A stretch of 52,949 nucleotides of DNA, taken from Polyangiaceae bacterium (lineage in GTDB: Bacteria > Myxococcota_A > Polyangia > Polyangiales > Polyangiaceae). The stretch spans positions 193,508 through 246,456 of the forward strand of contig JAXLYP010000017.1 in assembly GCA_046351395.1 (NCBI GenBank). Reading direction: 5' to 3'. This document shows, piece after piece, positions 1,781-43,972 of the stretch. Positions within the stretch are counted from its first letter, which is position 1; every line of letters begins with the position of its first letter. The notes beneath the pieces are model-generated. The model worked only from the letters and a program-made list of their open reading frames with translations. It was not told the DNA's origin and ran no database searches. Both the position numbers and the translations under genes were made by a program.

Positions 1781-3994
1781 TCACAGTCGCAAGATCGAGA
1801 GGAGGTTCGCGTAGTCGTCGGTGAAGGGGCGCGCGCCGGTCGGCGCGGCCGACCAGCCGAGCGCCTCGAGCGCGGCGCGCCTTTTGGGGGCTCGCGTCGC
1901 CGCGATCCAGCGGCTCGGGAGCGCGAGATCCTCGTCCGCTGCGGACCTCGCGCAGAGGAGGGGCGGCGCGCCCAGCGCGTCCAGCGCGGCGGCGAGCGGC
2001 CCCGCGAGATCGTAGAACCGGTTCGAGATCTGCACGGCCAGCACGCCATCGGGGGCGAGGACGCGCAGCGTGTCGGTGAGCGCCTCCATCGTGAGGAGGT
2101 GCACTGGGAGCGAGTCGCTCGAGAAGGCGTCGACGACGACCAGCGCGTACCTCTCGTCCGGCTCTGCGCGGAGCGAGAGGCGCGCGTCCCCCAGGACGAT
2201 CCGCGGGCGCTCCGGCGCGTCCGACACGTACGTGAAGAGGGTCGGGTTCGTCGCGATCGTGACGACGACCGGATCGATCTCGAAGAACGTCATCCTCACG
2301 CCGGGCTGGTCGTACGCGGCGAGCGTGCCCGCGCCGAGCCCGACCACCGCGACGTCGCCGCGCGCCTCCGCGTCGAGCGCGACGCCGAACACGTCCGCGA
2401 TCGGGCTACCTGGAGCGAAGTACGCCGTCGGCCGACGGCGCTTCTCCTGGGCCGTCCACTGCGATCCGTGCACCGTCGTCCCGCTGTAGAGGGTCGCGAC
2501 CTCGCCGCCCCGGGTCCGTCGGACCTCGCTCACGCCGAAGAAGCTCCGCCCGCGGTACGCCACCCCGGTGCGCAGCCCGAACGCGCCGATGACGAGCGCC
2601 GTGGCGGTCGTCGCGACGAGGATCCACGGTCGCGTGCCGAGCAGGAGCAGCAGCCCGCCGACCACGAGCGACAACAAACCGATCTGGCGATCCCTCCCGC
2701 CGTCCCGGACGAGGATCACGGCGAGCACGCCCGCGCCGAAGACGTAGGGACCCAGGCGCCCGGCGAACTCTCCGAGGATGGATCGGAGGTCCTGCCCGCG
2801 CGCGCCCCAGGCGTCTCGGTGGAGCGCGACCGCGACGAGCGCGCCGAGGAGAAGGATGGGGTACTCCCAGATGTCGGGGAACGCGCGCGGCGCCACGAGC
2901 GCGACGAACATCGAGCCCAGCGCGCCCCCGACGGACACGACGACGTAGAACTCGGTCGCTCGCGCGGGATCGGGGCGATCCCGCGCGAGGAGCCCGTGGA
3001 GCGCCACCACGACGACGCCGAACGCGACGAGCATGATCGGCAAGAGCGCGAGTACGGGCCCGGTCGACGCGCCGTAGAGGACCCAGAGCAACGTGATCAT
3101 CGCGGGCGCCGCGACGATCGCCCAGCGGACGACGCGTCGGGTCGAGAACGCGACGATGAAGGAGCCGATGTAGAGCGCGAGCGGCACGACCCAGACGAGC
3201 GGCGCCGCCACGAGATCCGTCGACAGGAACGTGGTCACCGCGGAGAGCAATCCCGAAGGGACCGCGGAGAGGAGCAACCAGCGCGCGCGCCGTCGATGCG
3301 TGATGCGGGGGGGCTCGGCCCGGGCCTCGTCCAGTGTGGCGCGGGACCCGGTCGGCGAGAGAGCGCGCCCCCTCCACCTGGTGACCGCCGCGAGCGCGAG
3401 CGCCAAGACGAGCGCGGCGTACGCCGCGAACCACGCGTGGCGCTGCGCGCGGAGCCCGAGGCGGGGCTCGACGAGGAGAGGGTAGGCGAACAGCGCGAGC
3501 ATCGAGCCCGCGTTGCTGATCGCGTAGAGCCAATAGGGATCGCGCTCGCCCTGCGGTCCGAGCGAAGACCGATACCAAGCCGAGAGCAGCGGGGTGGTCG
3601 CGGTGAGGACGAACAACGGCAGCCCGATGACGACGACGAGCAGCCGGAGCAGCTCCAGCGCGGCGGGGAGCGACCCGATGCCGAGATCGGAGAGGCGATC
3701 CGGGACGAGGAGCGACAGCGCGAGCCCGAGCGACGCGAGCCCCATGTGCACGATCGGCCCCCAACGACCGAGCCGCGTGATCGAGAGGTGCGCGTAGACG
3801 TAGCCCGCGACGAGGCAAATCTGGAAGAAGCAGAGCGCGGTAGCCCAGACCATCGGCGCGCCGCCGAAGACCGGCAGGAGGAGCTTTCCAACGAGCGGCT
3901 CCACGCTGAACAGCAAGAACGCGGAGAGCCCGATCGACACGGCGAAGGGCGCGGTCGTGCCGAGCGTCGTGGAGCGGGGGGGCGGAAGCGGCAC
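1781..3994 (-). CDS. fused polytopic membrane domain + spermidine/spermine synthase-like (aminopropyltransferase-fold) protein
   Basis: N-terminal multi-TM region (SIGLSAFLLFSVEPLVGKLLLPVFGGAP...) followed by a spermidine-synthase-like C-terminal domain (GDVAVVGLGAGTLA...LVVVDAFSSDSLPVHLLT). GTG start at 3994 chosen just upstream of the first TM; start is uncertain. Confidence 0.65.
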   Translation of the reverse strand: MPLPPPRSTTLGTTAPFAVSIGLSAFLLFSVEPLVGKLLLPVFGGAPMVWATALCFFQICLVAGYVYAHLSITRLGRWGPIVHMGLASLGLALSLLVPDRLSDLGIGSLPAALELLRLLVVVIGLPLFVLTATTPLLSAWYRSSLGPQGERDPYWLYAISNAGSMLALFAYPLLVEPRLGLRAQRHAWFAAYAALVLALALAAVTRWRGRALSPTGSRATLDEARAEPPRITHRRRARWLLLSAVPSGLLSAVTTFLSTDLVAAPLVWVVPLALYIGSFIVAFSTRRVVRWAIVAAPAMITLLWVLYGASTGPVLALLPIMLVAFGVVVVALHGLLARDRPDPARATEFYVVVSVGGALGSMFVALVAPRAFPDIWEYPILLLGALVAVALHRDAWGARGQDLRSILGEFAGRLGPYVFGAGVLAVILVRDGGRDRQIGLLSLVVGGLLLLLGTRPWILVATTATALVIGAFGLRTGVAYRGRSFFGVSEVRRTRGGEVATLYSGTTVHGSQWTAQEKRRRPTAYFAPGSPIADVFGVALDAEARGDVAVVGLGAGTLAAYDQPGVRMTFFEIDPVVVTIATNPTLFTYVSDAPERPRIVLGDARLSLRAEPDERYALVVVDAFSSDSLPVHLLTMEALTDTLRVLAPDGVLAVQISNRFYDLAGPLAAALDALGAPPLLCARSAADEDLALPSRWIAATRAPKRRAALEALGWSAAPTGARPFTDDYANLLSILRL

Positions 3995-4206
3995 CAGGCG
4001 CCGCCATGCTATCGGGTCTCGGGGACCGGGGGCTCCTCCGCACGCTGGTACGAACGTACCTGAGCGGATCGCCGCCGCACCTGGTGGCGAATCCCGCGCT
4101 GGACCGGACCTTTTTGGACCCCGCGCGATGCGCAAGCCAATGACCGCGCAAGGATGGTTCGAATGTCCAATGAGTCCACCGAGGGGCGTGCCGCCCGGAG
4201 CGTTCT

Positions 4207-4322
4207 TGTGGGCTCCTCGCGCGCTTCGACGAGCTCCTCCCTCAGGAGGCCTTGGGGCGGCCCGTGAGGTAGAGGCCCATCCCGCCCTTCTCGGACGCCC
4301 ACGCATAGCGCTCGGTGCCGGG
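4207..4322. repeat. about 115-bp repeat, copy 2
   Basis: See copy 1. It overlaps the last ~25 codons and 3' flank of the methyltransferase gene. Confidence 0.7.
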
Positions 4323-5039
4323 GACCCCGCGCGCGATGTCCAGGAGCTCCTCGGGCGCGTACGCGCGGAGCGCGGACACCGTCCCGTCCCACGCGAAGAG
4401 GAACGGGATGAGCGGCACCAAATAGGTGAGGAGCCAGCGCGACGCGCGCACCGGACGCACGAGCGGGACGAGCGCAAACGGCAGCGTGAAGAGCACGAGC
4501 GCGTTCGGCAAGAGCGCAAACGGCGACAGCGGCGCGGGCATCTTGCGCATCATCGGGTTCGCGGCGACGTCGAAGAACGCGACGTGCGCGCCGCTCGCGA
4601 CCGCATCCGCGAGGAGCGAATGGATCGCCTCGGGCGGGAAGTGGTGGAGCGCCCCGAACATGGTCCGCAAACCTCGGAGATCGGAGGGGACGTGCATCGC
4701 GTCGACCGGCTCGCCGTGCACCGCCACGTTCGCGAGTCCCCGCGTCCGCCCGATGGTCGCCTCATTGGGGTGCCGATCGGTCAGCAGGAACCGCACGTCC
4801 GTCCGCCCTCGCGCCGCGAGCGCCCTCGCCATGAAGAGCGCCCCTCCGCCGCCGCCGGAGCAGAGGTCGACGACCTGCTGCCCGCCGCTCGCGTCGATCG
4901 CGCGCTCGAGGACGTCGACGAGCGGCTGGTAGAACTTCACCAGCCCGAAGAAGGTATCCAAGAGGTCCGTCCCGCCGTCTCGAATCGCGCCCGGCATCCA
5001 GTCGAGATCCTCGAGCTCCACGAAGTGCACGCGTCTCAT
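4242..5039 (-). CDS. class I SAM-dependent methyltransferase with C-terminal hydrophobic segment
   Basis: Rossmann motif VVDLCSGGGGGALFMARAL; ATG at 5039 (MRRVHFVELEDLDW); ends ...ERYAWASEKGGMGLYLTGRPKAS*. Confidence 0.65.
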   Translation of the reverse strand: MRRVHFVELEDLDWMPGAIRDGGTDLLDTFFGLVKFYQPLVDVLERAIDASGGQQVVDLCSGGGGGALFMARALAARGRTDVRFLLTDRHPNEATIGRTRGLANVAVHGEPVDAMHVPSDLRGLRTMFGALHHFPPEAIHSLLADAVASGAHVAFFDVAANPMMRKMPAPLSPFALLPNALVLFTLPFALVPLVRPVRASRWLLTYLVPLIPFLFAWDGTVSALRAYAPEELLDIARGVPGTERYAWASEKGGMGLYLTGRPKAS

Positions 5040-5647: not shown

Positions 5648-6859
5648 ATGCGACTCCGAAGCGCGCTCCTCCCCGCCTTGGGTGTATTGTCTGTCGCGTG
5701 TGGGGGCGGCGCCTCACCTCGTGTGCAGGAGCCGAAGCCGACTGGGCAGTGGCGGGGATCATCGACTGGGCAGTGGACGGGATCCCCGACCGGTGTGCCG
5801 TGGGGTGGCTCCATCGTCGCGGGCGGCCTTGCGATCCTGCGGAGCGGCGCGTGTCCGCTCACGGAGATCGCGCCGGGGCAGTGGGCCCAAGCGGCGTGCG
5901 CGCCCATCGTCCAGTTCAAGAACGCGCTGCCCTATCGGGCGCCACCTTTCGTGGCGAGCGCGCTCCCCGCCTATGTAGACCACCGCGCCTCGGGGCTCGA
6001 GGGCCCCGTGAAGAACCAACAGAACGTGGGCGCGTGCGGCGCCTTCTCCGTCACGACCGCGATGGAGAACGCGCTCCGCAAGCAAGGCCGGCAGGACGTC
6101 CTCTCGGCGCTCCATTACTACGTGAAGTACGGCACGGTCGCCGGCACCGGCGAGAACGGCGACGCGATCACCACGGACGCCGTCTGGCCGTACGACCCCG
6201 TGAAGGCATGCCTCTTGTCGCCCGACGAGGGCGGGGACACGTGCGATCAGGACTTCGGCGTCGTGCGGGGCGGCGGTCGCGGCGATCCGCGGTTGCGCGC
6301 CGAGCAGGCGAACGCAGACAGTCGCGGGCTCGTGCGGCTCGACCGCGCGTGGAGCATCGATCCCCGGGACGTAGACGCCATCGCGGCGATCCTCGCCGCC
6401 GGCGACGACGTCGACGCGACCTTCGCGTTCGATCGGGATGCGTGGAGCTACCGGGGGATCCAGAGCGGCGTCTTCAGCCACTACCAGGGCCCCAAGGACT
6501 ATGGTCATGGCGTCGTCCTCGCGGGGTATCGCTGGGTGAACGGAGAGCGCCAGTTCCTCATCCACAACAGCTGGGGCGCCGACTGGGCGGAGAGCGGCTA
6601 TGCGTGGATGGCGGAGAGCGACGTCCGCGCGAACCTTTGCTCGGCCTACAAGATCGATCTCGCCGAAGCGGGGACGCCGCGCCGGCCCGAGGAGACGGCG
6701 CACTATTGTCCGGGCGGGCTCCCTCCCATCGGCAACCAATGTATCCCCCTCCCGCAAGCCTCGACCGCGTGTCCGCCGGGCACGATCGGCCTTCCGGGTC
6801 TTTGTCTGCCCACCGGGGGCATCAATCCCCTCGGAGACCTCGCGCCAGGTGCGCCGTGA
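5648..6859 (+). CDS. papain-family (C1) cysteine peptidase lipoprotein
   Basis: Lipobox LSVAC; QNVGACGAFS (papain Q...C motif), YGHGVVLAGY and HNSWGADWAESGYAWM (His/Asn block). Confidence 0.75.
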   Translation: MRLRSALLPALGVLSVACGGGASPRVQEPKPTGQWRGSSTGQWTGSPTGVPWGGSIVAGGLAILRSGACPLTEIAPGQWAQAACAPIVQFKNALPYRAPPFVASALPAYVDHRASGLEGPVKNQQNVGACGAFSVTTAMENALRKQGRQDVLSALHYYVKYGTVAGTGENGDAITTDAVWPYDPVKACLLSPDEGGDTCDQDFGVVRGGGRGDPRLRAEQANADSRGLVRLDRAWSIDPRDVDAIAAILAAGDDVDATFAFDRDAWSYRGIQSGVFSHYQGPKDYGHGVVLAGYRWVNGERQFLIHNSWGADWAESGYAWMAESDVRANLCSAYKIDLAEAGTPRRPEETAHYCPGGLPPIGNQCIPLPQASTACPPGTIGLPGLCLPTGGINPLGDLAPGAP

Positions 6860-7703
6860 GCTCGGTCGCGACGCGCGTGTGGAGCTCGAGCACGGTGAAC
6901 CAATCGATGAGCTCGATGCGGAGCGCGCTCACGGCCGACGCGGCCCGCGCCGTGTGCGCGCGGGGGACCTCCGCGAGCGCATCGAGGAACCCCATGTCCG
7001 TCCCCGCTCCGACGGTCGCGCGCTCGCCGCGCGCGGTCTCGCACTCGACGAGCCCCGCGGTGACGCGGATCCAGTGGTTCGCGACATCTCCCGCGCTCCA
7101 GAGGACGTCGCCTCGCTGAAACCGCACGTCCGTGGACGCGCTCGCGATCTCCGCGAGGCCCTCCACGTTCGCGCGCGCGATGGGCGATCTCCGGAGCTGG
7201 ATGACCCGCTCCACGACCGTCAGCTCCTCGTCCCGAAACGTGCCGTGCTCCGGCGGATCGGAGCGATTGGGCAATGGCCCGCGCTCCGCGAGGAGGTCCC
7301 GCGCGAGGCCCCGCAGCACGAAGCGCTGGAGCGCGAAATCCCGTTGGAGCGCGATCCGGACCGCGTCTCCGGGGATCTCGAGCGCGAGCGTCCGTGCCTC
7401 CGTCGTCGCGCTCAGGTGATCGCGCTCCGTGAGGAGCGCGGTGAACCCGAGCGCGCGCTGGCTCTCCACGCGGCCGACCAGGGTGCCTTCGTGCTCCACG
7501 CGCACGCTCCCCTCGAGCACGTAGAGCACGGACGTGATCGGATCGGTCGCGCGCCAGATCACCGCGCGCGGCCGAAACCGCCGGTAGCGGGAGCGCTCCG
7601 CCATGAGCAGGAGAGTGTCCACGCTGACCGATCGAAGATCGGGCATCGAGCCGAGGAGGCGGGCGCGCGCCTCGACGCTCGCGAGCTCGGGCTCAGCTTG
7701 CAT
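6822..7703 (-). CDS. tandem cyclic-nucleotide-binding (CAP effector) domain protein
   Basis: Two cNMP-binding-like domains (RYRRFRPRAVIWRATDPITSVLYVLEGSVRVE...). Start overlaps the stop of the upstream TLC gene by 11 nt. Confidence 0.65.
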   Translation of the reverse strand: MQAEPELASVEARARLLGSMPDLRSVSVDTLLLMAERSRYRRFRPRAVIWRATDPITSVLYVLEGSVRVEHEGTLVGRVESQRALGFTALLTERDHLSATTEARTLALEIPGDAVRIALQRDFALQRFVLRGLARDLLAERGPLPNRSDPPEHGTFRDEELTVVERVIQLRRSPIARANVEGLAEIASASTDVRFQRGDVLWSAGDVANHWIRVTAGLVECETARGERATVGAGTDMGFLDALAEVPRAHTARAASAVSALRIELIDWFTVLELHTRVATELTAHLARGLRGD

Positions 7704-10515
7704 GCGGAGTGTCTCGTGGTGCAGAAGGGAACAGCGACGTCGAGGACGGAATCGAGGCTCGGCGCGTCACCTCCGGCGCCTCGGGTTCGGCCGCGCGATC
7801 GGGAGCTCCAGCGAGGAGGGCGCGGGCGCGCGAGAAGTCGGTCACGTCCGGCTCCTCCCTACAGAGCTCCTCGATCCGCGGGAGCTGACTCGTCATCCCG
7901 AGCTCCGCCGCGTGATAGGCAGCGAACTTGCGGAGGATCGCGCTCGAGCTCCCCAGCATCTGCGCGATCGCCGTCTCGTAGTCGAGATCCACGGATGCAT
8001 GGAACTCCTTCCCGCGCGTGCGTCGCTCGACGTCGTCGACGTCATCGACGAGCCCGATGACGGCGTCGCGCAGCGGATTCTTGAGGACGATGTGGATGAG
8101 CTCGACGGCGGTCGCGCGGTGCTCCTTCCCGCCCCGCTCGATGCTCGTGAAGATCGCGTCGATCTCCTCGTTCGGGTTGAGCAGCGCCAGCAGCCGGAAC
8201 ACGCGACCCACCATGTGTCGCTGCTTGTCTCGCAGCAAATCCACGAGCAGGCCGTGCCCGACCGTCGCTCGGCGTGGGTCCTCCTCCCGCCCGCGCCGGA
8301 GCGCGACGAACCGATCGAAGGACCGGTAGGCGCGGGCGACCGTGCGCTGGATCTCCTCCCCGAGGAGGCGCTCGTCGAGGCGCGTCTCGGGCCGCGCGAC
8401 GACGATCTGTCCGAGCGCGAGGATCGAGCGATACCGCACCATCCCATCGGGCTCCTGTCCGAGGTTCGCGAGCAGGATCTCGGGCGCCTCGGGCGAGTCG
8501 ATGTCCGCGAAGAGGCTCGGCACGAGCCTCCGCACCGCCCGCGGGCGATCCCGATCGCGGAGCGCGCGGACGATCGCGCCCGCGCCCGCGGGGCCCGCGG
8601 CGCTCAGCGCGAGGCGGACGTCCGCGCCCACCTGACTGTCTGCGAGCAGGTCGACCAGGGTGTTCGCGGACGTCTCGGTCGCGAGCCCGCCGAGCGCCGC
8701 GATCGCCGCGCGGCGGACGTCGAGCTCGCGCGCGCGCGTGAGCTCGACGATCTCGGGCTCGAAGCGGGTCGCCTTGCGCCAGCCGACGACCTCGGCCAGG
8801 AGGCGCCGGCTCTCCACGCTGCCCTCCGAGACGATCCGCCCGAGCTCGTGGTGAGCCTCTTCCGCCTCCATCATGGAGAACGCAGCCATCGTCGTGAGGA
8901 TCGCCGCGCGGATGTCCGGCGAGGTCTCCCGCGCGAGCTGCTCTCTCCACCGCGTCGCGTCCGGCGCGAGCACCGCGCGAGCGGCCATCGCCTCGGCGCG
9001 GACGCGGATGGAGGGGTGGCGATCCAAGTGGGTGAGCGCGTGGAGCGCGACCTTCCGACCGCGCACGCCGAAGATCCGGAGCGCGGTCACGACGACGGTC
9101 TCCGACGGGTGATACAGGATGAGCCCCGGGATGACGTGGGCCTTCCCCTCCCGATCCAAGATCCGTAGCGAAGACACGACCGTGCTCTCCGCTTCGCTCT
9201 CGAGCGACTCGAGGAGCGACTCGAGGGAGGCCATGTCGAGCCGCATGAGCGCGCCCGCGAGCCGCCTCCGACCGGACGCGAGGGCGTCCTTGAAGAGCTG
9301 CGCGTAGTCGCCTCGGAGCCATGTCGCGAGGACGACCGCGCCCGCGGCCGTGACGACGAGGAGGACGGCGAGCCATCGCGGTGGCAGCTCGGTCGCCACC
9401 CCGACGAGGATGACGACCGAGCCCACCATCTGGGCGCCCCGTTGACCGAGCGCGTCCATGAAGCTCTTGGCGACCGTCCGCGGACCGTCCTCGAGGGGCA
9501 CGAGCAGGAGCTCCGCGGCCGTGCGGTGCACGCTGAAGCGCATGCTGCCGTCCACGGCCTTCGTGATCACGGCGGGCGCGAGCGTGCCCGTGATCGCGAC
9601 GCCGAGGCCCCCGGCGACGAGCCCGAACGGCAGCACCGCGAACACCAACGGGAGAGGCAAGCGCGCGACGAGCGATCGGACCGCGAACACCTGAACGCAG
9701 ACCGAGATCACGTTCAGGACCACGTTCACGCGGCCGAACACGCGCGCGAGCTGGTCGTGCGCGAAGTGGGCGGTGATCTGCGACTTGAAGATGAAGTCCG
9801 AGATCGTGACGGCGATCGTGATGAGGCCGCAGACCGCGACCACCCGTCGGATGTAGGGGTGGCGAAGGGCCGTGCCGAGGCGCTCGCCGAGCGTCCCGTC
9901 GCGCCCGTCGTGCTCGCCGTCGCGCGCGCGTTCGTCGAGGCCGCCGCTCGAGAACAGCATCGGCATCCAGGCGGCGCCGAAGAACAGCACGCCCGCGAAG
10001 AGGGAGAGGTTCGCCGGCGCGACCCACGTGACGAGCCCGACCGCGCCGCTGCCGAGGATCGCGCCGAGCCCGGCTCCGAGCCCGATCATCCCGTAGAGCC
10101 GTTTGGCCTGGCGAATCGAGAAGAGCCCTCCAACGAGGGACCAGAAATGGATGAGGACAATCGTCGAGAGGACGCCCGACCAGATGTAGAAGACATAGAG
10201 CCCGACCTCACCCAGGCTCGGCAGCGCACGGGAGAGCGCGATCGTCCCGAGCGACGAGGCGACCGTCCAGCCGATCAGCACGCGCCGCGGCGTCGTGCGC
10301 CGGAACACGGCTTGGGCGCGCGTCGCGACGAGCGTCGCGGCGGCGAGCGCGACGTACACCCAAGGGAGTCGGCTCGTCGGGATGTGGGCGAGGAACATCG
10401 CGTCGCGCGTCGCCTCGAGGATGCTGTGGCCGGCCACGAAGACGAACAGGAAGACAAAGGCGGTGATCGCATCCCGCCGCTCCGATCGCCGCACCGGGAA
10501 GAGCCGCCGCAGCAC
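7693..10515 (-). CDS. TLC/Npt-family nucleotide transporter (ATP/ADP-translocase family) fused to C-terminal HEAT/PBS-lyase-like repeats
   Basis: N-terminal ~430 aa polytopic with TLC-like start (FLFVFVAGHSILEATRDAMF...); C-terminal ~500 aa alpha-helical repeats. GTG start 1 nt after the upstream gene's stop. Confidence 0.75.
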   Translation of the reverse strand: MLRRLFPVRRSERRDAITAFVFLFVFVAGHSILEATRDAMFLAHIPTSRLPWVYVALAAATLVATRAQAVFRRTTPRRVLIGWTVASSLGTIALSRALPSLGEVGLYVFYIWSGVLSTIVLIHFWSLVGGLFSIRQAKRLYGMIGLGAGLGAILGSGAVGLVTWVAPANLSLFAGVLFFGAAWMPMLFSSGGLDERARDGEHDGRDGTLGERLGTALRHPYIRRVVAVCGLITIAVTISDFIFKSQITAHFAHDQLARVFGRVNVVLNVISVCVQVFAVRSLVARLPLPLVFAVLPFGLVAGGLGVAITGTLAPAVITKAVDGSMRFSVHRTAAELLLVPLEDGPRTVAKSFMDALGQRGAQMVGSVVILVGVATELPPRWLAVLLVVTAAGAVVLATWLRGDYAQLFKDALASGRRRLAGALMRLDMASLESLLESLESEAESTVVSSLRILDREGKAHVIPGLILYHPSETVVVTALRIFGVRGRKVALHALTHLDRHPSIRVRAEAMAARAVLAPDATRWREQLARETSPDIRAAILTTMAAFSMMEAEEAHHELGRIVSEGSVESRRLLAEVVGWRKATRFEPEIVELTRARELDVRRAAIAALGGLATETSANTLVDLLADSQVGADVRLALSAAGPAGAGAIVRALRDRDRPRAVRRLVPSLFADIDSPEAPEILLANLGQEPDGMVRYRSILALGQIVVARPETRLDERLLGEEIQRTVARAYRSFDRFVALRRGREEDPRRATVGHGLLVDLLRDKQRHMVGRVFRLLALLNPNEEIDAIFTSIERGGKEHRATAVELIHIVLKNPLRDAVIGLVDDVDDVERRTRGKEFHASVDLDYETAIAQMLGSSSAILRKFAAYHAAELGMTSQLPRIEELCREEPDVTDFSRARALLAGAPDRAAEPEAPEVTRRASIPSSTSLFPSAPRDTPHAS

Positions 10516-10516: not shown

Positions 10517-11965
10517 TCAGAACCCCGTCGTCCCGCCGACGAGGAACCGGACGCTCTCGGGCTCGCCGCCCTCCGCGAACGGCTTCGTCCCGAAGCCCAA
10601 GAGGAGGTTCAACGCGTGGTCACGGTGATTCGGCGATTGGAACCCCCCGACGAACGAGAACCGGAGTCGCTCGAGTTCGAAGTCCTCGAAGTCGCGCCCG
10701 AACACGTTCCCCACCTGCGCGCGGAGCGTGGCGTCGACGAACGACCAGATGGGCCAGGTGTACGTGACGCTCGCCGCGGCGGACGTCTCGCCGAGGAGGC
10801 GCCCGGGGGTGAAGCCGAGGAGGGGCTCGTCGTCGGGCACGCGATCGGTCCGACCGCTCCCGATGAGCTCCGTGAACGGCACGCGCGCCGTGCTCGAGAA
10901 GGGCTCGATCGCGCGGACGTCCACGAGGAGCCCGAGCACGCGCCGCGTCCCCGTGACGTCGATGAACCCGCCCACGGACCCGCCCACCTGCGCCCACTCG
11001 ACGTGCGACCCGACGTCGCTCCCGAGCTCGGCGTGCGCGTCGAGCCCGACCCCGGAGCCCGGCCCTGGGCGCGGCTGTCGCGAGTCGAGCACGACGCGCC
11101 CACCGACCTTCACCGCGGTGTATCCGGCGAACCCGTCGGGGAGGGGATAGAGCCCTCGAGCGACCGCGCGGGAGATGGGCAGCGTAGGACACTCGTGTGG
11201 CCATACCGGGCAGCTCTCGTCGGAGAACGAGTGGTGCCGGACGACGGCCCAAGCCTCCACGAAATTGGCCTTTCGCGGCTCCACGTGGGTCCGAATGCCG
11301 CCTCCGACCGAGCGCTGCTCGAACCTCGACTCGTCCGCGTAGCGAGACCGGTACCCCACACCGTAGAACAGGTAGTCGGCGCGGACGACCCCGTCCGCCT
11401 CGAGCTGCAGGTTGGAGCGCACGCGGTGAGAGCCGTCGGGTTCGACCTCGACGTCGAGCGGGACGCGGTCGACCACGCGAGCTGCGAAGTACCTCTCGCC
11501 CCCCGTCGCGACCGACGCGCGGAGTTGATTGTCTGTCACGAGGAAGTCGTCGTAGAAGTGGTAGAGGCCGACGCTCGGACGAAAACCGAACTCGTAGAAC
11601 GCCGTCGGGATGAGGCCCACGTTGTGGTGAGGGCCGAACGTGAAGAAGTCGGTCACCTTCGCCACGATGCCCTCGCGGTCGATCACCGTGGTGATCGCGC
11701 CGAGGGGGCGCCGGATGACGTAGTCCGAGACCACGTAGAGCGGCGCGAAGAGGACGCGGGGGATCCAGAGCGCGCCCTCCGCCGCGGTCGTCTCGCGCGG
11801 TCTGCCCTCGTAGTCCTGCGGTGGGCGCTTCTCTCCGGGCGGCCGGGATGGATCCTCGGGGAGCACGGCGGGGTGCTCGGGGACGTCCCCCCGCGCCGGG
11901 GGCGCCGCCGCGAGGGCAGCGCCGAACGCGAAGACCATGGCACCGAGCGCCTTGGGCGAGTTCAT
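10517..11965 (-). CDS. secreted beta-barrel-like protein with C-terminal Phe (paralog of 23156..24616)
   Basis: Signal peptide MNSPKALGAMVFAFGAALAAAPPARG. Ends ...LRFSFVGGFQSPNHRDHALNLLLGFGTKPFAEGGEPESVRFLVGGTTGF*, nearly identical to the paralog's C-terminus. ATGA overlap with the upstream lipoprotein gene. Confidence 0.7.
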   Translation of the reverse strand: MNSPKALGAMVFAFGAALAAAPPARGDVPEHPAVLPEDPSRPPGEKRPPQDYEGRPRETTAAEGALWIPRVLFAPLYVVSDYVIRRPLGAITTVIDREGIVAKVTDFFTFGPHHNVGLIPTAFYEFGFRPSVGLYHFYDDFLVTDNQLRASVATGGERYFAARVVDRVPLDVEVEPDGSHRVRSNLQLEADGVVRADYLFYGVGYRSRYADESRFEQRSVGGGIRTHVEPRKANFVEAWAVVRHHSFSDESCPVWPHECPTLPISRAVARGLYPLPDGFAGYTAVKVGGRVVLDSRQPRPGPGSGVGLDAHAELGSDVGSHVEWAQVGGSVGGFIDVTGTRRVLGLLVDVRAIEPFSSTARVPFTELIGSGRTDRVPDDEPLLGFTPGRLLGETSAAASVTYTWPIWSFVDATLRAQVGNVFGRDFEDFELERLRFSFVGGFQSPNHRDHALNLLLGFGTKPFAEGGEPESVRFLVGGTTGF

Positions 11966-13779
11966 TGGAGGGCCGCGCCCGGCTCGTCGGGCCTCTGGAT
12001 GGCGACCATCTTGAAGTGGGAGGACGCCCCGAGATCGTACAAATGAACGCGCAGCGGACCCCGCGCCGCGCCGTTCGAGACGTCGAGCACCGCGTATCGA
12101 AGGGGGTGATCGTCGGGCAGCGAGCGGTCGTCCACGACGCGCGGTAGATCCACGCAGACCGTCGCATCGTCGCCGAGGCTGACGGGGAGGGCCTTTCGCT
12201 GGTCGAGGTCGAGCCCCGTCCGGAGCTCGGCGGCGTACGTGAACCGCGTCCTCGGCCAGGTGGTCGTCTTGTGCGCGAGATCGGTCGCGCAGACGCGGTC
12301 GCCCTCGACGGTCACGTCCGCCAGCGGGGATACGACGCTGAAATACCGCGTGAGGATCTCGTCCCTTCGTTGGATGAGTGTCCGCGTGAGGAACTCCGTC
12401 GCGCGAGGGTCCGTGTAGTCGCCGACCCGCACCGCGGCCGCGATGTTCGCGTCGGTGAAGCGCGACAGGATGCGCGCCGCCCACGCGCCGTCCTCCTCCG
12501 TCATGCGAGCGAACGCGGGGTTCGGGTAGCCGCCCTTCCAGTCCTCGGGCACGAAGTCCGGCCTGAAATAGTCGAACATCGGGAGCTCGGTGTTCGCGAC
12601 GGGCCGGTCCCATGGGCGCTCGAACGAGCCGAGCGTCAGGAGGTCGATCGCCACGTCCTCCGGATCGAAGTAGTAGCTGTGGTTGATCCTCCGGTTCCAG
12701 CTCTCCCATTGCCAATGGCTGCCAAAGCAGTCCCCGAGGTCGATGTACCAATGTGTCGTCCGCCCCGGAGAGGAGTCCTTCGACTCGGGGTCCACGGCGT
12801 CCCAGGTGGTCATCGTGTTTTGCTCGCGCGAATCGAAGTGCCCGAGCCACGCGGCCATGAGCCGCGCTCCGCGGAGATCCCTTCGGTCCTCGTGAGGGAT
12901 GATGTCGTTGGGATCGTCTTCTCGCGTCTCCTCGTACCGGAAGGGGCCGATCGCGCGTCCTGGGAGCCACCGCGACGCCACCATTCGTACGAGCCCACCT
13001 CGCTTCTGTGCGCTGTCGAGGATCGCCTGGAGCTTCCCGTCGTCGAACGGCATTTTGGTGCCCGTATTGTCTGCGTAATCGAGCCCGGGCTCGAGCCTGA
13101 GCCAGGACTTGTCGACGTAGACAATCGTGTCGCACGCGGTCCACCAGCCCGCGGCGTGGTAGAGCCTGGACGCGATGGATGTCGCCCCGGTCGCCTTCTC
13201 GCCTTCGCCCTCGGCGTCTGCCTTCAGCATGAACTTGCCGACGCCCTCGATCTCGACCCGAAAGCCCGGGTTCGCGCCGTTCGCCTTGCCCATGTCGACG
13301 CGCCAGGCGCCCGGTTCGTGCGGGGCCGTGGCGATCGTCTTGTGGCCGCAGCTCCCGCGCGTGATCTCCTCGTCGGTCATCGGCCTCACGCCGATGCGGT
13401 TCGTGAACCAGCTCGAGTCGGGCACCTCGTCGACCGCGTTCACGTTCCGCGCAGCGAAGCCGACGTCCGCGGCGAAGAACTTCACGATGGGCCGGAAGAT
13501 GGTCTTGTCGGCGACGTCCCATAGGAACGGGGACTCGTACTCTTCGGGCCGACAGAGTTGCTTCTTCGCGTCCTTCGGATCGGGGCGACACGGCACTCGG
13601 ACCGCCCGCAGATCCTCGTCGATCCAGACCGGGTCGCGGAGCGGGAACCGCCGGATGCCACCGCACCCCGCGACCGAGGTCGCCGCGCCGCTCGCCAGCG
13701 CCGCGCCGATCACGACTCGGCATGCGGCTCGCAGAATCTTTACGGCCCCCGCCTCGCGATGAGCCCACCGAATCGCCAT
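11962..13779 (-). CDS. secreted lipoprotein with atypical kinase-like motifs (paralog of the split 18997/21043 gene)
   Basis: Signal and lipobox (...ALASGAATSVAGCGG). Motifs LMAAWLGHFDSREQNTM (HxDxxxxN-like) and WYIDLGDCFGS (DxG) align with VLTALIGHQDDIGVNFY and LLSVDNGLAFG of the paralog. ATG at 13779 overlaps the divergent PAP2 start. Confidence 0.6.
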   Translation of the reverse strand: MAIRWAHREAGAVKILRAACRVVIGAALASGAATSVAGCGGIRRFPLRDPVWIDEDLRAVRVPCRPDPKDAKKQLCRPEEYESPFLWDVADKTIFRPIVKFFAADVGFAARNVNAVDEVPDSSWFTNRIGVRPMTDEEITRGSCGHKTIATAPHEPGAWRVDMGKANGANPGFRVEIEGVGKFMLKADAEGEGEKATGATSIASRLYHAAGWWTACDTIVYVDKSWLRLEPGLDYADNTGTKMPFDDGKLQAILDSAQKRGGLVRMVASRWLPGRAIGPFRYEETREDDPNDIIPHEDRRDLRGARLMAAWLGHFDSREQNTMTTWDAVDPESKDSSPGRTTHWYIDLGDCFGSHWQWESWNRRINHSYYFDPEDVAIDLLTLGSFERPWDRPVANTELPMFDYFRPDFVPEDWKGGYPNPAFARMTEEDGAWAARILSRFTDANIAAAVRVGDYTDPRATEFLTRTLIQRRDEILTRYFSVVSPLADVTVEGDRVCATDLAHKTTTWPRTRFTYAAELRTGLDLDQRKALPVSLGDDATVCVDLPRVVDDRSLPDDHPLRYAVLDVSNGAARGPLRVHLYDLGASSHFKMVAIQRPDEPGAALQ

Positions 13780-14649
13780 CCGATCGCCGTGCGCGCGGCC
13801 GAGCTCCTCGGCTCGAGTCCGCTGCTCGTGCTCGCGGGCGTGGGCGTGTTCTCGATCGGGCTCGTCCTCGTTCTCGTCGTCCTCGCGAGGTGGATGAGCG
13901 CGCGGGGCCTCGGCTGGCGGAAGGCCCTCTTTCGACGCGCCGCGCGCGCTGTCGGCGCCGCCCCGAGCGCGCGCGCGAGGCTCTCGCGGCTCGTCCGGCT
14001 CGAGTACGAGCTCGTCCACCTGGGACTTGGGCTCGCGCTCCTCGCCGGGCTGGTCGTGTTCGTGGCGCTCGCGGTCTCCGTCGTCGACGACGGCGCAGTC
14101 GCGGCGTTCGACGAGTCGCTCGCGCGTGCGGTCCACCGATCGACGCCGCCCGAGCTCGTGCGCGTCATGCTCGTCGCGACCTCGCTCGGCGGCGGTGAGG
14201 CCGTCCTCGTCGTCGCGGTGGTCGTCGCGGTGGGGCTCCTGGTGCGGCGGCGATGGCACCTCGCCATCGGCTGGATCACGGCGGAGGCGGGCGCGGGCCT
14301 CTTCAACGCGCTCCTCAAGTCGCTCTATCGGCGCGCGCGTCCCACGCTCGACGATCCGTTCACGAGCGCATCCGGGTGGAGCTTCCCGAGCGGACACTCC
14401 ATGGGGACGATCGTCACCGCTGGGATGCTCGCTTATGTGTTCTCCCGGTTCTACCCGCCGGGGTGGCCGCGCTTCGTGGCCGTCTTCCTCGCGACGCTGT
14501 GGACGCTCGTCATTGGGTTCAGCCGCGTGTGCCTCGGCGTCCACTACGCGAGCGACGTGCTCGGAGGGTTCGCCGCGGGCGCGGTGTGGCTCGTCGTTTG
14601 CGTTTCGGGCCTCGAGGTGGCGTTGCGCCCCAATCGCTCGGCCGTTTAG
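13759..14649 (+). CDS. PAP2-family integral membrane phosphatase
   Basis: KSLYRRARPTLDD ... SFPSGHSMG ... SRVCLGVHYASDVLGG (PAP2 KxxxxxxRP / PSGH / SRxxxxxHxxxD motifs); several TM helices. Confidence 0.65.
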   Translation: MSPPNRHPIAVRAAELLGSSPLLVLAGVGVFSIGLVLVLVVLARWMSARGLGWRKALFRRAARAVGAAPSARARLSRLVRLEYELVHLGLGLALLAGLVVFVALAVSVVDDGAVAAFDESLARAVHRSTPPELVRVMLVATSLGGGEAVLVVAVVVAVGLLVRRRWHLAIGWITAEAGAGLFNALLKSLYRRARPTLDDPFTSASGWSFPSGHSMGTIVTAGMLAYVFSRFYPPGWPRFVAVFLATLWTLVIGFSRVCLGVHYASDVLGGFAAGAVWLVVCVSGLEVALRPNRSAV

Positions 14650-14773: not shown

Positions 14774-15790
14774 ATGCCAACCGTCCTGTCGCAACCGCGT
14801 CGTACCGCGCCCGCATTCGCAGCACGTTCGATGTTCTTCGGTGTCTTGATCAATGGGATCGTCCCTTCGTCCGCGCTCGCAGATCCGCAAGTGGACACAG
14901 CGCCGAGCGCTCCGACGGAGAAGGCAACCGCCGCGCCCACGCCGCTCGCCACGAAGAGCGCCGCGGAGAAGAAGCCGGACTCGCTGGATTGGGATCCGCG
15001 TTGGCCGGAGGTGAAACCCTACGAGTACATCCTCACCGGTGTGTTCGCGCTCGCAGCGATCGGTGGACAGGCGATCCCCGGCGGCCCGAGGTGGACGGGG
15101 CACAACGCGTTCGACGACGCGGGCCGCGAGGCGTTGCTCTTGCCGGACTTCGAGGATCAGGAGCGCGCGAAGGACTTCAGCGACGTGGGCCTCGTGATCC
15201 TCGTGAACCAAGCGCTGATCGACAATCTCTTCGTCACGTGGTGGGCGCGTGATCACCCGAAGACCGCATGGCAGCTGTCCGTGATCGACACCGAGACGCT
15301 GGCGTTCAGTATCGGCGTGGACGCGCTCGTCGCCGGCGCGACGGGCCGCGAGCGCCCGTACGTCGAAGCGCTGTGCGATCAGGAGGACCACAAGAATCGC
15401 GGCTACTGCGACGGGAGCAACCGCTACCGAAGCTTCTTCAGCGGACACTCCACGGCCGCGTTCACCCTGGCGGGGCTCACGTGCATCCATCACGCGGAGC
15501 TCGGTATTTACGGCCACCCCGTCGCTGACGCGTTCGCGTGCGGCGGCGCGATGGCGACGGCGACGGGCGTCGCGCTCCTCCGTGTCGCCTCTGATCAGCA
15601 CGATCTCTCGGACGTGCTCGTCGGGGCAGTGTGGGGCACCGCGACCGGGGTCACGCTGCCGTGGCTCCTCCACTACCGGGGCGGGGCGAAGGTCGAAGAG
15701 AAGAAGCCGGACCCGCATGCCGCCGTCGAGGCCCCGCCGCCGGGCGTGGTCGTCACGCCGAGCGGCGCGTACGTCATGGGAGCGTTCTGA
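14774..15790 (+). CDS. PAP2-family membrane phosphatase (secreted N-terminus); alternative start 14831
   Basis: SFFSGHSTAAF and RVASDQHDLSDVLVGAVWG motifs; several hydrophobic helices. Confidence 0.6.
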   Translation: MPTVLSQPRRTAPAFAARSMFFGVLINGIVPSSALADPQVDTAPSAPTEKATAAPTPLATKSAAEKKPDSLDWDPRWPEVKPYEYILTGVFALAAIGGQAIPGGPRWTGHNAFDDAGREALLLPDFEDQERAKDFSDVGLVILVNQALIDNLFVTWWARDHPKTAWQLSVIDTETLAFSIGVDALVAGATGRERPYVEALCDQEDHKNRGYCDGSNRYRSFFSGHSTAAFTLAGLTCIHHAELGIYGHPVADAFACGGAMATATGVALLRVASDQHDLSDVLVGAVWGTATGVTLPWLLHYRGGAKVEEKKPDPHAAVEAPPPGVVVTPSGAYVMGAF

Positions 15791-16721: not shown

Positions 16722-17639
16722 TCAGAACTGCCCGCCCCAGGAGAGCTGCACGGGCGGCCGCGCGGTGACGAGCGGCGCGGACGCCGCCGCGCTCGTGTTC
16801 GGGCCGTCGACGGTCTGCGTGTAGTGCAGGGCGAGGGGGACCGCGAGGCCTACCCCGTACCCGAAGAGGAAGCCGCTGATCGCGTCGCTCATCCAGTGCC
16901 GATCGGAGATGACGCGCATCCCGGCGATGGTGACGGCGAGGGCCGTCGAGCCGACGCACGCGACGACGTCGGGCGCGCCGCCCCCGTAGAGCGGGACATA
17001 GGCGTGGTGGGCGCACGTCAGCCCCGCGCCGACCGCGCTCATCGTCGCGTGACCGCTGAACCAGCTCGCGTTGACGCCGAAGGAGCCACAGTCGTACGCC
17101 CAGCCTTTGTCTGTTTGGCATCCGATCCCGGCTGGGCGCTCCCGCGCGGCGAGCCGGTGGTTCACGCGCATGACGAGATACGCGATCCCGTAGGCCTCGA
17201 GGTTCATCGCCGTCAGCTGCTGGAGCATATCGAGGTTCTCGTCGATCGCCGGGACGAGGACTCCATCGATGAGGACGGGGTAGGCGGCGCTCACGGCGAG
17301 CAAGACGTCGCTCGCGATCTGAATGCCGCGTCGATCCTTAAGCCGCGGCATCGCGACGGCGTCGCGGGCGATCTCGTCGAACAGGATGGGCCCGATCCAC
17401 CGGGGCTCGATGGGCTGTTCGGTCCCGAACTCGATGATGCCCGCGCCGGTGATCGACAGGGCGGTGAGCGTGTACTCGCCCCACACGACGCGCGGGTGGG
17501 ACTCGTCCCAGTGCAGGCGGTGCTCGTCCTTGGCCTGCGCCGCTGCGCGCTCGCATGGCGCGAAAGCTGCGAGCGCCGCGCCCAGAAGGATCGCGTGTTG
17601 GTGTCTGTGCAGCGAGGAGTTCACCAGGGGATCCGTCAC
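16722..17639 (-). CDS. PAP2-family membrane phosphatase (paralog of 14774..15790)
   Basis: SWFSGHATMSAVGAGLTCAHHAY and RVISDRHWMSDAISGFLFGYG; signal peptide; ends in Phe. Confidence 0.65.
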   Translation of the reverse strand: MTDPLVNSSLHRHQHAILLGAALAAFAPCERAAAQAKDEHRLHWDESHPRVVWGEYTLTALSITGAGIIEFGTEQPIEPRWIGPILFDEIARDAVAMPRLKDRRGIQIASDVLLAVSAAYPVLIDGVLVPAIDENLDMLQQLTAMNLEAYGIAYLVMRVNHRLAARERPAGIGCQTDKGWAYDCGSFGVNASWFSGHATMSAVGAGLTCAHHAYVPLYGGGAPDVVACVGSTALAVTIAGMRVISDRHWMSDAISGFLFGYGVGLAVPLALHYTQTVDGPNTSAAASAPLVTARPPVQLSWGGQF

Positions 17640-21719: not shown

Positions 21720-23159
21720 ATGAGCAACGCGCCGCGACGATCGTCGAGTCCACCCGATCCCAAAGAGGTCGCCCGGCGCTCCCTCGTCGAACGAGCGCTC
21801 GGGGTGATCACCGAGGTGAGGGCAGGCGAGGGGGGGACCGCACTCCTCATGACGCTCAATGTCTTTCTGCTGCTCACCGCATACTATCTCATCAAGCCGG
21901 TCCGTGAGGGCCTCATCGGGAGCGTGAAGCACGGCCCCGAGTACAAGAGCTACATGGGGGGCGCGGTCGCGCTCGCGCTCTTCGCCATCGTCCCGCTCTA
22001 CGGGATGCTCGCCGCGAGGCTGAAGCGGAACGTGCTCATCTCGAGCGTCTCGCTCTTCTTCGTCGCGAACCTCGTCGGCTTCTGGATGCTCGGCCGCCTC
22101 CCCTGGGTCGCGACCGAGACGGGGGCGACGGTCTATGCGCTCGCGTTCCTCCTCTGGGTGGGCGTGTTCAACCTCATGATCGTCGCGCAGTTCTGGGCGT
22201 TCGCCGCCGACGTGTACACCGACGAGCAGGGGAAGCGGTTGTTCGCGCTCATCGGTCTGGGCGCGTCCGTCGGCGCGGTGATGGGGAGCCTGGTCATGAA
22301 CCGCGTCGTGACCGAGCTCGGCACGGAGCACATGATGCTCGTCGCCGCCGTGACGCTCGCGCTCGCGACGGCGGTGACGCTGCTCATCCATCGGCGCGAG
22401 TCCCGGCGGCCGCGGGCGCCGGACCCGGAGAAGGAGCGGAAACAGCGCGAGGAGAAGGAGGCGAAGCAGAGCAGTCAGGGCGCGTTCTCGCTCGTGCTCC
22501 ACGACCGGTATTTGCTGCTCATCGCGGCGTTCACCGTGCTCTTCCAGATCGTGAACACCAATGGCGAGTTCATCCTCTCGAGCCTCGTGGCGGACGCGTC
22601 GCGCGCCGTGACCGAGACGCGAGAGGAGCAGAAGGCGTGGATCGCCTCGTACTACGGGAGCTTCTTTCTCTGGGTGAACATCGCGGGCGTGGCGATCCAG
22701 ACGTTCCTCGTCTCGCGGATCGTGAAGTGGGGCGGGCTCAAGGTCGGCCTCCTCATCTTCCCCGTCGTCGCGCTCATCAGCGAGGCGGCCATCGCGGTCG
22801 TCCCGGTGCTCCTCCTCGTTCGGATCGGCAAGACGGCGGAGAACTCGCTCGACTATTCGCTCAACAACACGCTCCGCAACGCCCTCTGGCTCCCCACGAC
22901 GACGCGCGCGAAGTACGTCGCGAAGCAGGCGATCGACAGCTTCGTGTCGCGCGTGGGCGACATGGGGTCGGCGCTCGCGATCTTCATCCTCATCGACGCG
23001 CTCCACTTGACCGTGCGAGCGGTCGCGACGCTCAACGCGTGCCTCGTCCTCGCTTGGATCTACGTGTCGATCGAGATCGTCCGCGAGAACGGCAAGCTCA
23101 CCGAGGACGCGAAGGGCAAAGCGCTTTCACGGCTGGAGGCGGCGGGGGCGAGCGCGTGA
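21720..23159 (+). CDS. TLC/Npt-family nucleotide transporter (ATP/ADP-translocase family)
   Basis: ALLMTLNVFLLLTAYYLIKPVREGLIG... 12-TM-type profile; paralog of the N-terminal domain of 7693..10515. Confidence 0.75.
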   Translation: MSNAPRRSSSPPDPKEVARRSLVERALGVITEVRAGEGGTALLMTLNVFLLLTAYYLIKPVREGLIGSVKHGPEYKSYMGGAVALALFAIVPLYGMLAARLKRNVLISSVSLFFVANLVGFWMLGRLPWVATETGATVYALAFLLWVGVFNLMIVAQFWAFAADVYTDEQGKRLFALIGLGASVGAVMGSLVMNRVVTELGTEHMMLVAAVTLALATAVTLLIHRRESRRPRAPDPEKERKQREEKEAKQSSQGAFSLVLHDRYLLLIAAFTVLFQIVNTNGEFILSSLVADASRAVTETREEQKAWIASYYGSFFLWVNIAGVAIQTFLVSRIVKWGGLKVGLLIFPVVALISEAAIAVVPVLLLVRIGKTAENSLDYSLNNTLRNALWLPTTTRAKYVAKQAIDSFVSRVGDMGSALAIFILIDALHLTVRAVATLNACLVLAWIYVSIEIVRENGKLTEDAKGKALSRLEAAGASA

Positions 23160-41797: not shown

Positions 41798-42376
41798 CTA
41801 TTGGAACCGGAGCTCGCGGACGAACGCGTAGGTCTTGGGCGCGAGCCGCAGCTGAAAGCTCTGTCCGCCCTCGTTCGCGCGCGACTCGAGGTCTTTTTTG
41901 TAGCGCACGGTGACGACCACGTTCCCCTCGGCGTCGGTTCCTTCGATCGTGTGCGTCCAGGCGTCGGCGGGCCACGCTCGCTTGTCGGAGACGTACGCTT
42001 CGACGGCGATCGCGACGCGCGCGTCGTCGATGTCGTCGGGCCACGGCATGACGAGTTTGCTCTCGCCGGGCGCGATGGGGCCGACGTGATCGAGGACGGA
42101 TGCGTACTTGGGATCGCCCGGCGCGTACTTCCTTTGCGCGGGCGCGGGCCGGAAGAGATCGAGGACGATCGTCCCGTCCGGGAGCATCCTCGCTTGACCA
42201 ATCGCTTCCATGGGACCTCCGCTCGACGCTGGGGCCGATGGTAGCCGCCCTTCCGCGCTTGGCGCGACGGACGCACCCGCGGGCGCCGACGGGGATCCCG
42301 TGGGTGTCCGAGGATCGGCGGAGGAGCAGGCGAAGAACGTGAGGGCGAGGGCGAGGGCCGAACCCGGGAAACGCAT
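41798..42376 (-). CDS. small hypothetical lipoprotein
   Basis: MRFPGSALALALTFFAC lipobox; high GC3. Confidence 0.5.
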   Translation of the reverse strand: MRFPGSALALALTFFACSSADPRTPTGSPSAPAGASVAPSAEGRLPSAPASSGGPMEAIGQARMLPDGTIVLDLFRPAPAQRKYAPGDPKYASVLDHVGPIAPGESKLVMPWPDDIDDARVAIAVEAYVSDKRAWPADAWTHTIEGTDAEGNVVVTVRYKKDLESRANEGGQSFQLRLAPKTYAFVRELRFQ

Positions 42377-42384
42377 GCGCGGTT

Positions 42385-43845: not shown

Positions 43846-43972
43846 GTTGGTGTCAAGCGGGGAGGGATGAAAGGGTTGGGGAGGGATGAACGAGTTGGGG
43901 CGTACGCTCGTCAGACGCCATGCGAACGTTCCCCGCGTCGCGGGATTCCTCCCAGCACTCGAACGACCCCGG

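Follow-up and report, generated by a model that had tools for sequence, protein, structure and literature searches.

An NTT-type transporter with a HEAT-repeat extension and its conserved partner, a tandem cyclic-nucleotide-binding-domain protein, in a Polyangiaceae bacterium

Proteins in which a nucleotide transporter of the NTT family carries HEAT repeats at its C-terminus were described by Major, Embley & Williams (2017, Genome Biol Evol; PMC5381601), who state that these fusions are "very broadly conserved" and form a single clade, with members in Deltaproteobacteria, Acidobacteria, Cyanobacteria, Chlamydiae (Chlamydia trachomatis included) and oomycetes. According to the same article, a gene coding for a domain of the cyclic-nucleotide-binding kind (cNBD) lies a few nucleotides downstream of the NTT-HEAT gene in the same operon or is fused to it, NTT-HEAT-cNBD triple fusions exist, and the authors speculate that ATP uptake could be adjusted to the demand for energy by cyclic AMP (cAMP) (PMC5381601). 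Here we analyze a gene pair of this kind, C and D, in a stretch of 52,949 nucleotides from a Polyangiaceae bacterium (assembly GCA_046351395.1, contig JAXLYP010000017.1, positions 193,508 to 246,456; G + C about 70%), hereafter the window, in whose numbering positions are given unless another locus is named. Gene C codes for an NTT-HEAT protein and gene D for a stand-alone protein made of two cNBDs. The pair matches the published clade in its N-terminal NTT domain, in the HEAT repeats (PF13646/PF02985) at the C-terminus and in the downstream cNBD (PF00027), and D shares its duplicated cNBD with the NTT-HEAT-cNBD proteins reported from oomycetes (PMC5381601). It is a rediscovery, in a new organism, of a kind of system that was published in 2017 and is functionally uncharacterized. 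What is new here is the pairing of C and D in 80 of 80 loci, the degenerate ligand sites of D, and a link of the pair to genes for a lipoprotein of kinase fold, predicted to be exported, and for a putative barrel of the Omp85 type.

One genome was scanned for each GTDB species; relatives of C were found in 373 species, and neighborhoods were counted in the best 80 loci, which belong to at least seven phyla (Myxococcota, Acidobacteriota/Vicinamibacteria, Gemmatimonadota, Eisenbacteria, Krumholzibacteriota, Latescibacterota and Binatia). The pairing is universal among them: a homolog of D lies directly downstream of C and on the same strand at every locus, 70 being detected by tblastn and 10 more by a hidden Markov model (HMM) at 187-364 bits. 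At 55 of the 70 analyzed junctions the candidate start of D overlaps the stop of C, the commonest overlaps being those of 4, 11 and 8 nt; at 14 it lies 0-8 nt past this stop; the last locus, L069, shows an in-frame C-D read-through with an Arg-rich linker and is possibly an assembly artefact. All-versus-all clustering of the open reading frames (ORFs) of the 80 loci revealed no other neighbor conserved with C-D across phyla and returned only generic histidine kinases, NtrC-type regulators, Ser/Thr kinases and noise from antisense ORFs. In some Acidobacteriota/Vicinamibacteria, a paralog in which NTT, HEAT and a single cNBD are fused lies directly upstream of the C-D pair, for example at 2..2851 of L041 and 2829..6908 of L056, and judged by their sequences these fusions look genuine. 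D is an obligate partner of C. The adjacency in 80 of 80 loci, the overlapping or abutting starts and the NTT-HEAT-cNBD fusions, both the published ones (PMC5381601) and those of L041 and L056, very strongly support a functional coupling of the transporter-HEAT protein with the tandem cNBD protein.

The window shows the same layout: C and D, both minus-strand ORFs with a marked codon-position bias, overlap by 11 nt where one stops and the other starts (Table 1). A preliminary description of this DNA had already proposed this overlap and the association of a transporter bearing HEAT-like repeats with a gene for tandem cyclic-nucleotide-binding domains; the gene boundaries are exact, and the domain searches that it suggested gave a Pfam HEAT_2 match in C and a cNMP_binding match in D, both scoring above their cut-offs. 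The overlap points to translational coupling, by which D would be made in step with C. Upstream and on the same strand are two further genes, A and B. Because the stop of A overlaps the ATG of B (ATGA), the stop of B lies 1 nt before the GTG of C, and C overlaps D, the layout A-B-C-D is best described as a predicted four-gene, translationally coupled operon with A-B as its proximal and C-D as its distal half. Family HMMs identified one HEAT domain, one D-type, two NTT-type, two B-type and one A-type gene in the window. Scans of the window for promoters and terminators, tRNAs and Rfam families were empty or uninformative. A gene for a secreted papain-family (Peptidase_C1) cysteine protease (5648..6859, plus strand) is convergent with D, the 3' ends of the two overlapping by 38 nt (6822..6859).

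The product of gene C is 100% identical to an NCBI protein from a metagenome-assembled genome (MAG; P0001), annotated as "Npt1/Npt2 family nucleotide transporter". In its AlphaFold model, which has a predicted local distance difference test score (pLDDT) of 85.3, aa 10-413 form 12 transmembrane helices, and a linker of low confidence (417-426) leads to an all-helical solenoid of about 475 aa (428-901). The N-terminal half of a family profile built from 24 diverse homologs (alignment A1) matched AtNTT1 (PDB 9j3j, E = 3.6e-21) and the chain of 9j3n (E = 1.3e-18), while the C-terminal half matched designed HEAT-like proteins of the alphaRep type with E-values as low as 1.6e-34. Consistently, CpNTT1 and AtNTT1 are the best matches of the model in a Foldseek search of the PDB (top entries 9j3n, 9j3m and 9j3l), with generic MFS carriers behind. 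The Pfam model HEAT_2 scores 46 bits (cut-off 27.7) and TLC (PF03219) 32.3 bits (cut-off 21), the latter aligned to only 53 residues (aa 106-158), and the NCBIfam model of the "NTP/NDP exchange transporter", TIGR00769, has a cut-off of 387.2 bits and reaches 21.8. C belongs to the NTT family (TC 2.A.12), though as a remote relative and not a canonical exchanger. Its family has invariant charged residues at E34, R37, D38, K138, D240, K244, K319, D322, R326, E335, R346, K350 and R359, among them residues that align with the NTT1 motifs AKR/AKK, WKS/FKS, E-x-x-x-PL and K-x-x-x-D, and a further invariant motif in the HEAT part, L467-Y-H-P470. An identity of C as a PBS-lyase/NblB protein was rejected, the NblB equivalog model scoring 18.9 bits against a cut-off of 300, and the "lyase" annotations of C-type proteins reflect their repeats only. 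The N-terminus of C is Arg-rich and predicted to be cytoplasmic, which together with the 12 transmembrane helices places the HEAT domain in the cytoplasm; D is assigned to the same compartment because it has no signal peptide.

A sequencing frameshift or a lost stop codon might have joined a separate HEAT gene to that of the transporter, and certain "triple fusions" in the databases do resemble artefacts of this sort: in P0059, of 1205 aa, and in L069, an open frame of 1398 codons, the linkers or tails are suspect, being rich in Arg and seemingly out of frame, and neither was used as Rosetta-stone evidence. For gene C, the chance of such an artefact, a caveat that the preliminary description had itself raised, is practically nil. 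The G + C content at third codon positions (GC3) stays at 0.90-0.95 in a single uninterrupted frame from position 10515 to about 7800, the frame of D taking over only after the stop of C, and more than 100 independent homologs of 880-940 aa have an identical domain order and align end to end; this continuity and these full-length homologs refute a frameshift. Moreover, AlphaFold is confident for both domains. Among the 189 matches obtained with C in a search of 5.8 billion proteins, the best 120 are nearly all 880-940 aa long and annotated with TLC and HEAT_2. An exhaustive search of cluster representatives gave 1064 matches at E <= 1e-30, the best 150 of which, nearly all again of 880-940 aa, each match in one stretch over approximately aa 5-900, barring a few fragments.

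In gene D, the Pfam model cNMP_binding matches two stretches with 70.7 bits (cut-off 27.5), and PDB matches include 2pqq and Epac (6h7e). Neither a signal peptide nor a helix-turn-helix (HTH) was found in the protein. D was rejected as a CRP/FNR regulator, its 293 aa being taken up by the two cNBDs with no HTH; matches to FtrB-type models are confined to the effector domain and reach 21-23 bits where the cut-offs are 211-300. The phosphate-binding cassettes were compared in an alignment of 69 D-family proteins and, split by domain, in a 13-sequence subset set against E. coli CRP and the fused cNBDs of L041 and L056. The fused paralogs have a canonical cassette, FGELALLDPEPRSASI, unlike the separate D proteins, whose cassettes are degenerate. 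In domain 1, represented in the window by GFTALLTERDHLSAT, the Gly is invariant (G86), the Glu position is occupied by F, L, G or A, and the Arg position by G, T, A, P or others, with no conserved Arg. In domain 2, which reads GFLDALAEVPRAHTA in the window, the Arg of the P-R pair is kept in 57 of the 69 proteins and the Glu is replaced (by F in the window, V, I, G or N elsewhere); the next-but-one residue after the Glu position is acidic (E/D) in 65, and the Ala that normally follows R-S/T is Y or F in 64. HMMER aligns domain 2 with the cassette of Epac, which likewise lacks the Glu. Judged by these residues, canonical cyclic-nucleotide binding by domain 1 is very unlikely, and domain 2 may bind a phosphate-bearing ligand that cannot be assumed to be cAMP or cGMP. 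The preliminary description had gone further and suggested that cyclic nucleotides regulate or scaffold the transporter; the coupling of C and D holds in all 80 loci, but the degenerate cassettes of the 69 sequences leave the cyclic-nucleotide signal unsecured.

We propose that C is an inner-membrane NTT-type carrier whose HEAT domain docks D, that D senses a ligand, and that the module tunes a nucleotide-type exchange, a reading to which we assign a probability of about 0.6. The HEAT solenoid would be the docking platform for D; D would sense a small cytoplasmic ligand, most likely via domain 2, since this is the sole domain of D that keeps the phosphate-binding Arg; and the HEAT-D module would gate or tune the exchange of nucleotide-type substrates across the inner membrane. 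The analysis shows the architecture and fold of C, its homology to solved ATP/ADP translocators, the cytoplasmic side of HEAT and D as given by topology, and the universal pairing of the genes; from these we infer a physical contact between the solenoid and D, the regulation itself, and the nature of ligand, substrate and transport direction. Several points weigh against it. The predicted template modeling score (pTM) of the C model is 0.60, which leaves the relative placement of the two domains undefined; the remote NTT signal means that the substrate may not be ATP/ADP; given its degenerate cNBDs, D may bind another ligand or serve purely as an adaptor; and no functional study of, or experiment on, any member of the NTT-HEAT clade was found in the literature.

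Since the proximal half of the operon codes for a predicted kinase-fold lipoprotein and a putative Omp85 barrel, C probably serves an envelope process in this genome. No PDB profile match was obtained with A, whose fold was identified by fold search alone; its fold neighbors are HipA, CtkA, PI4KII, Fam20 and CotH and include the lipid kinases PI4KII and MavQ. The bilobal kinase fold has the beta3 Lys, a catalytic D-x4-N loop and the metal-binding Asp, and the catalytic residues are invariant in a very large, highly conserved and unnamed family (7415 matches among the scored candidates). The top 120 matches exceed 50% identity and include cultured Sorangium strains. Invariant in this family are the lipobox Cys C27, several more Cys, GKxNGANPGFR, FMLK174, HFD304SREQN309 and YID335LGD338CFG. 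From the model, A is expected to be exported and lipidated and, as an enzyme with a kinase fold, to be catalytically competent. Neither A nor B of the window has a Pfam or NCBIfam match. Homologs of B with 35-45% identity carry PF01103 and are named as BamA/TamA family, and B appears to be a barrel of the Omp85 superfamily, too short for a full POTRA array. Elsewhere in the window lies a short NTT-type paralog without the HEAT extension. The preliminary description had contrasted it with C as lacking both HEAT repeats and a cyclic-nucleotide-binding partner, and indeed no HEAT match was found in it and the gene that directly follows is not a cNBD gene but a second Omp85-like gene, B', so that B and B' each adjoin an NTT-type gene. 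Three genes for PAP2-superfamily phosphatases are clustered beside the operon (13558..14649 and 14774..15790 on the plus strand, 16722..17639 on the minus strand); the longest ORFs of the first and of the 5' end of A overlap by about 190 nt, so at least one of these starts is miscalled.

Beyond the window, A lies within 7 kb of C in 10 of the 80 C-centered loci and B in 7, all ten with A being Myxococcota or unclassified MAGs. Seen from A, the association is strong: in a set of 41 metagenome loci centered on A, each of at least 9 kb, B is adjacent to A in 33 and an NTT-type gene occurs within 9 kb in 22; it has a HEAT-type extension in 18 of these loci, and D is present in 10. A recurrent layout is short NTT -> B -> A together with a convergent D <- C pair. 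All three look-ups of individual A homologs also recovered the trio: Sorangium So ce385 (A, a 524-aa gene and a TLC gene), a JGI contig with MFS - Omp85 - A - TLC+HEAT - cNMP_binding on one strand, and a Deltaproteobacteria MAG (A, Omp85, TLC/MFS, MFS/TLC and PAP2). NTT-type genes being rare in genomes, the presence of one near more than half of the A-B pairs is unlikely to be due to chance. A third NTT variant of about 720-750 aa, with a weak, short HEAT-like extension (40-70 bits), lies directly upstream of B-A in many loci (Table 1) and stands between the paralog of 479 aa and the NTT-HEAT protein of 940 aa. PAP2 was tried as a general partner and rejected, since a single-sequence search with the first PAP2 protein of the window found no homolog in the 41 A-centered loci; a PAP2 gene does lie beside the A-Omp85-NTT cluster of L084.

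Table 1. Features of the gene pair C-D, its operon and related genes (positions refer to the window, except in the last row)
Feature	Position	Strand	Details
Gene C, NTT-HEAT protein	7693..10515	-	GTG start, 940 aa, GC3 0.91
Transporter domain of C, aa 1-413	9277..10515	-	12 transmembrane helices, NTT/TLC branch of the MFS fold; profile, AlphaFold, Foldseek
HEAT/PBS-lyase-like alpha-solenoid of C, aa 428-901	7813..9234	-	About 30 helices, predicted cytoplasmic; HEAT_2 and alphaRep matches, AlphaFold pLDDT about 90
Disordered C-terminal tail of C, aa 902-940	7696..7812	-	pLDDT <50 at aa 905-940; last codons overlap the start of D
Overlap of C stop and D start, 11 nt	7693..7703	-	ATGcaagcTGA; from sequence
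Gene D, stand-alone tandem cNBD protein	6822..7703	-	ATG start, 293 aa, GC3 0.89
Degenerate phosphate-binding cassette, cNBD domain 1 of D, aa 86-102	7398..7448	-	GFTALLTERDHLSATTE; without canonical Glu and Arg
Atypical phosphate-binding cassette, cNBD domain 2 of D, aa 238-254	6942..6992	-	GFLDALAEVPRAHTARA; P247-R248 kept, Glu replaced, position 250 Y/F in the family
Gene B, secreted barrel of the Omp85/BamA-TamA superfamily (putative), 482 aa	10517..11965	-	Signal peptide, C-terminal ...GGTTGF
Gene A, lipoprotein, about 590 aa, predicted atypical protein-kinase-like fold and C-terminal beta-sandwich	11962..13743	-	Start uncertain: 13779, 13743 or 13713
Short NTT-type paralog, 479 aa, without HEAT	21720..23159	+	Pfam MFS_1 and TLC, 60 bits; CpNTT1 9j3n, E = 4.5e-10
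Gene B', second Omp85-like gene, 62% identical to B	23270..24616	+	Start uncertain; tblastn, HMM 612 bits
NTT variant of about 720-750 aa, other loci	L084: 12445..14709		Also in L099, L150, L154, L155, L159, L161, L162 and L164

Three other accounts of the transporter were considered. One follows the suggestion of Major et al. (2017) and takes C as an importer of external ATP or further nucleotides, such as those set free by prey or by cells in decay, with cAMP acting on D to match uptake to the energy state. All NTTs characterized so far import nucleotides or NAD (PMC5381601), and the transporter domain of C is homologous to solved ATP/ADP translocators. Domain 2 of D retains the PR motif in a cassette like that of Epac, the fused paralogs have a cassette of the canonical cAMP/cGMP type, and many of the hosts are Myxococcota, a phylum that includes predators. 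We nevertheless consider regulated scavenging unlikely: domain 1 is degenerate and domain 2 atypical throughout the D family, an outer-membrane channel specific for nucleotides is not apparent (B seems to belong to the Omp85 superfamily of insertases and translocases, not to a porin family), and the hosts live freely and have large genomes, with presumably complete nucleotide synthesis. The window itself comes from a contig of 246 kb, and contigs of 4.7-16 Mb carry relatives of A and C. In a second account C would be a divergent MFS-type transporter or "transceptor" for an anionic or amphipathic substrate other than a nucleotide, such as a phosphorylated lipid or sugar handled by the kinase-like and PAP2 enzymes, and HEAT and D would form a signaling scaffold. 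The shortness of the TLC match, the TIGR00769 score far under its cut-off, the lipid and organic-ion MFS carriers SPNS2, SLC45A4 and NorA that come next after NTT1 among the structural matches, the lipid kinases among the fold neighbors of A, and the PAP2 genes both beside this operon and beside the cluster of L084 would all fit. This account is improbable too in our judgment, as the profile match to NTT1 stands in a list from which other transporters are absent, the charged residues aligned with the NTT1 motifs are invariant, and the single-sequence search detected no homolog of the window PAP2 in the A-centered loci.

The operon itself suggests a third account, in which the NTT supplies ATP to the periplasm. 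C and the short paralog would be ATP/ADP antiporters that export ATP and retrieve ADP to energize the lipoprotein A, which would work with or on B, while HEAT and D would limit this loss of ATP as conditions in the cytoplasm require. This fits with the apparent translational coupling of all four genes, with B and NTT-type genes recurring around A in the metagenome loci, with the trio in a cultured Sorangium and two further assemblies, and with the behavior of characterized NTTs, which are antiporters whose direction is set by gradients (PMC5381601). However, A is near just 10 of the 80 C loci, and C-D must for this reason work independently of A in most phyla; moreover, 19 of the 41 A loci have no NTT-type gene within 9 kb, A could face either the periplasm or the cell surface, and no earlier case of a free-living bacterium exporting ATP through an NTT was found in the literature. 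A literature search on periplasmic ATP and periplasmic kinases likewise gave nothing relevant to A-B-C-D. We therefore regard ATP export as a rather unlikely explanation. NTT carriers are otherwise the emblem of energy parasitism. It is more doubtful still that those found here export ATP and retrieve ADP instead of scavenging nucleotides, so as to power an unrecognized, very large family of extracytoplasmic lipoprotein kinases (A) with a dedicated barrel (B), the HEAT-cNBD unit being a cytoplasmic valve. Regulated nucleotide-type exchange by C under the control of D is the reading that we retain.

Some further features of the window lie apart from this system. A gene at 26076..27797 (plus strand) codes for a 573-aa protein in which a zinc ribbon at the N-terminus is combined with a domain of Ser/Thr protein kinases (165 bits) and, at the C-terminus, an FGE-sulfatase domain, similar to the formylglycine-generating enzyme (186 bits). 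The C-terminal part of a 912-aa ORF at 1781..4519 (minus strand) matches the NCBIfam model "fused MFS/spermidine synthase" with 49 bits (cut-off 40), and no Pfam match was found in this ORF at E <= 0.01. The GC skew in the interval 42001..52000 is +0.11 to +0.17 at 42-48 kb and about -0.11 from 48 kb, being near zero elsewhere in the window; the flip near 48 kb may reflect a change of coding strand.

Compared with known systems, C shares the 12-helix fold of canonical NTT1/Npt1 carriers (AtNTT1 and NTT1 of C. pneumoniae, CpNTT1; PDB 9j3j-9j3o) and their motifs around K138, K244, E335 and K350, at about 15% identity, and differs in its HEAT tail of about 500 aa and its obligate partner, both of which canonical NTTs lack, and in its free-living hosts with large genomes. 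With NblB-type PBS-lyase HEAT-like proteins and alphaReps it has the repeat type in common, in a host that is not a cyanobacterium. D has the cNBD folds of the regulatory subunits of PKA, of Epac and of CRP/FNR effector domains, and is like the first two a tandem soluble protein of regulatory-subunit type; the domain 2 cassette (GxLxAL...PRA) resembles that of Epac, both being without Glu. Unlike these proteins D has no HTH, kinase-inhibitor site or GEF domain, its domain 1 lacks both Glu and Arg, and its domain 2 has Y/F in place of Ala, so cAMP control should not be assumed for such pairs. The accessible part of the article on the NTT-HEAT clade gives no function, does not examine the ligand residues of the cNBD and connects these proteins neither with a lipoprotein of kinase fold nor with a gene of the Omp85 type (PMC5381601). 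NTT-HEAT proteins, with or without a fused cNBD, occur in hundreds of free-living bacterial species, as seen in the 373 GTDB species genomes with a C relative, and the Polyangia operons that combine them with a predicted kinase-fold lipoprotein and a putative Omp85 barrel make NTT function in free-living bacteria experimentally approachable. The operon also touches a long-standing question, namely how enzymes that need ATP could function in a periplasm that has none. In the endoplasmic reticulum (ER) and Golgi, the ATP/ADP exchanger AXER/SLC35B1 feeds secretory-pathway kinases such as Fam20C. That arrangement and A-B-C-D have in common a compartment without ATP, an atypical kinase of the Fam20/CotH/PI4KII neighborhood and a carrier of an ATP/ADP antiporter family; the transporter families differ, the compartment here is the bacterial periplasm, and the likeness rests entirely on gene neighborhood. 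If ATP export were true, the operon would give the NTT-HEAT family of free-living bacteria a function and be a bacterial counterpart of the ATP import that serves the secretory kinases of the ER and Golgi.

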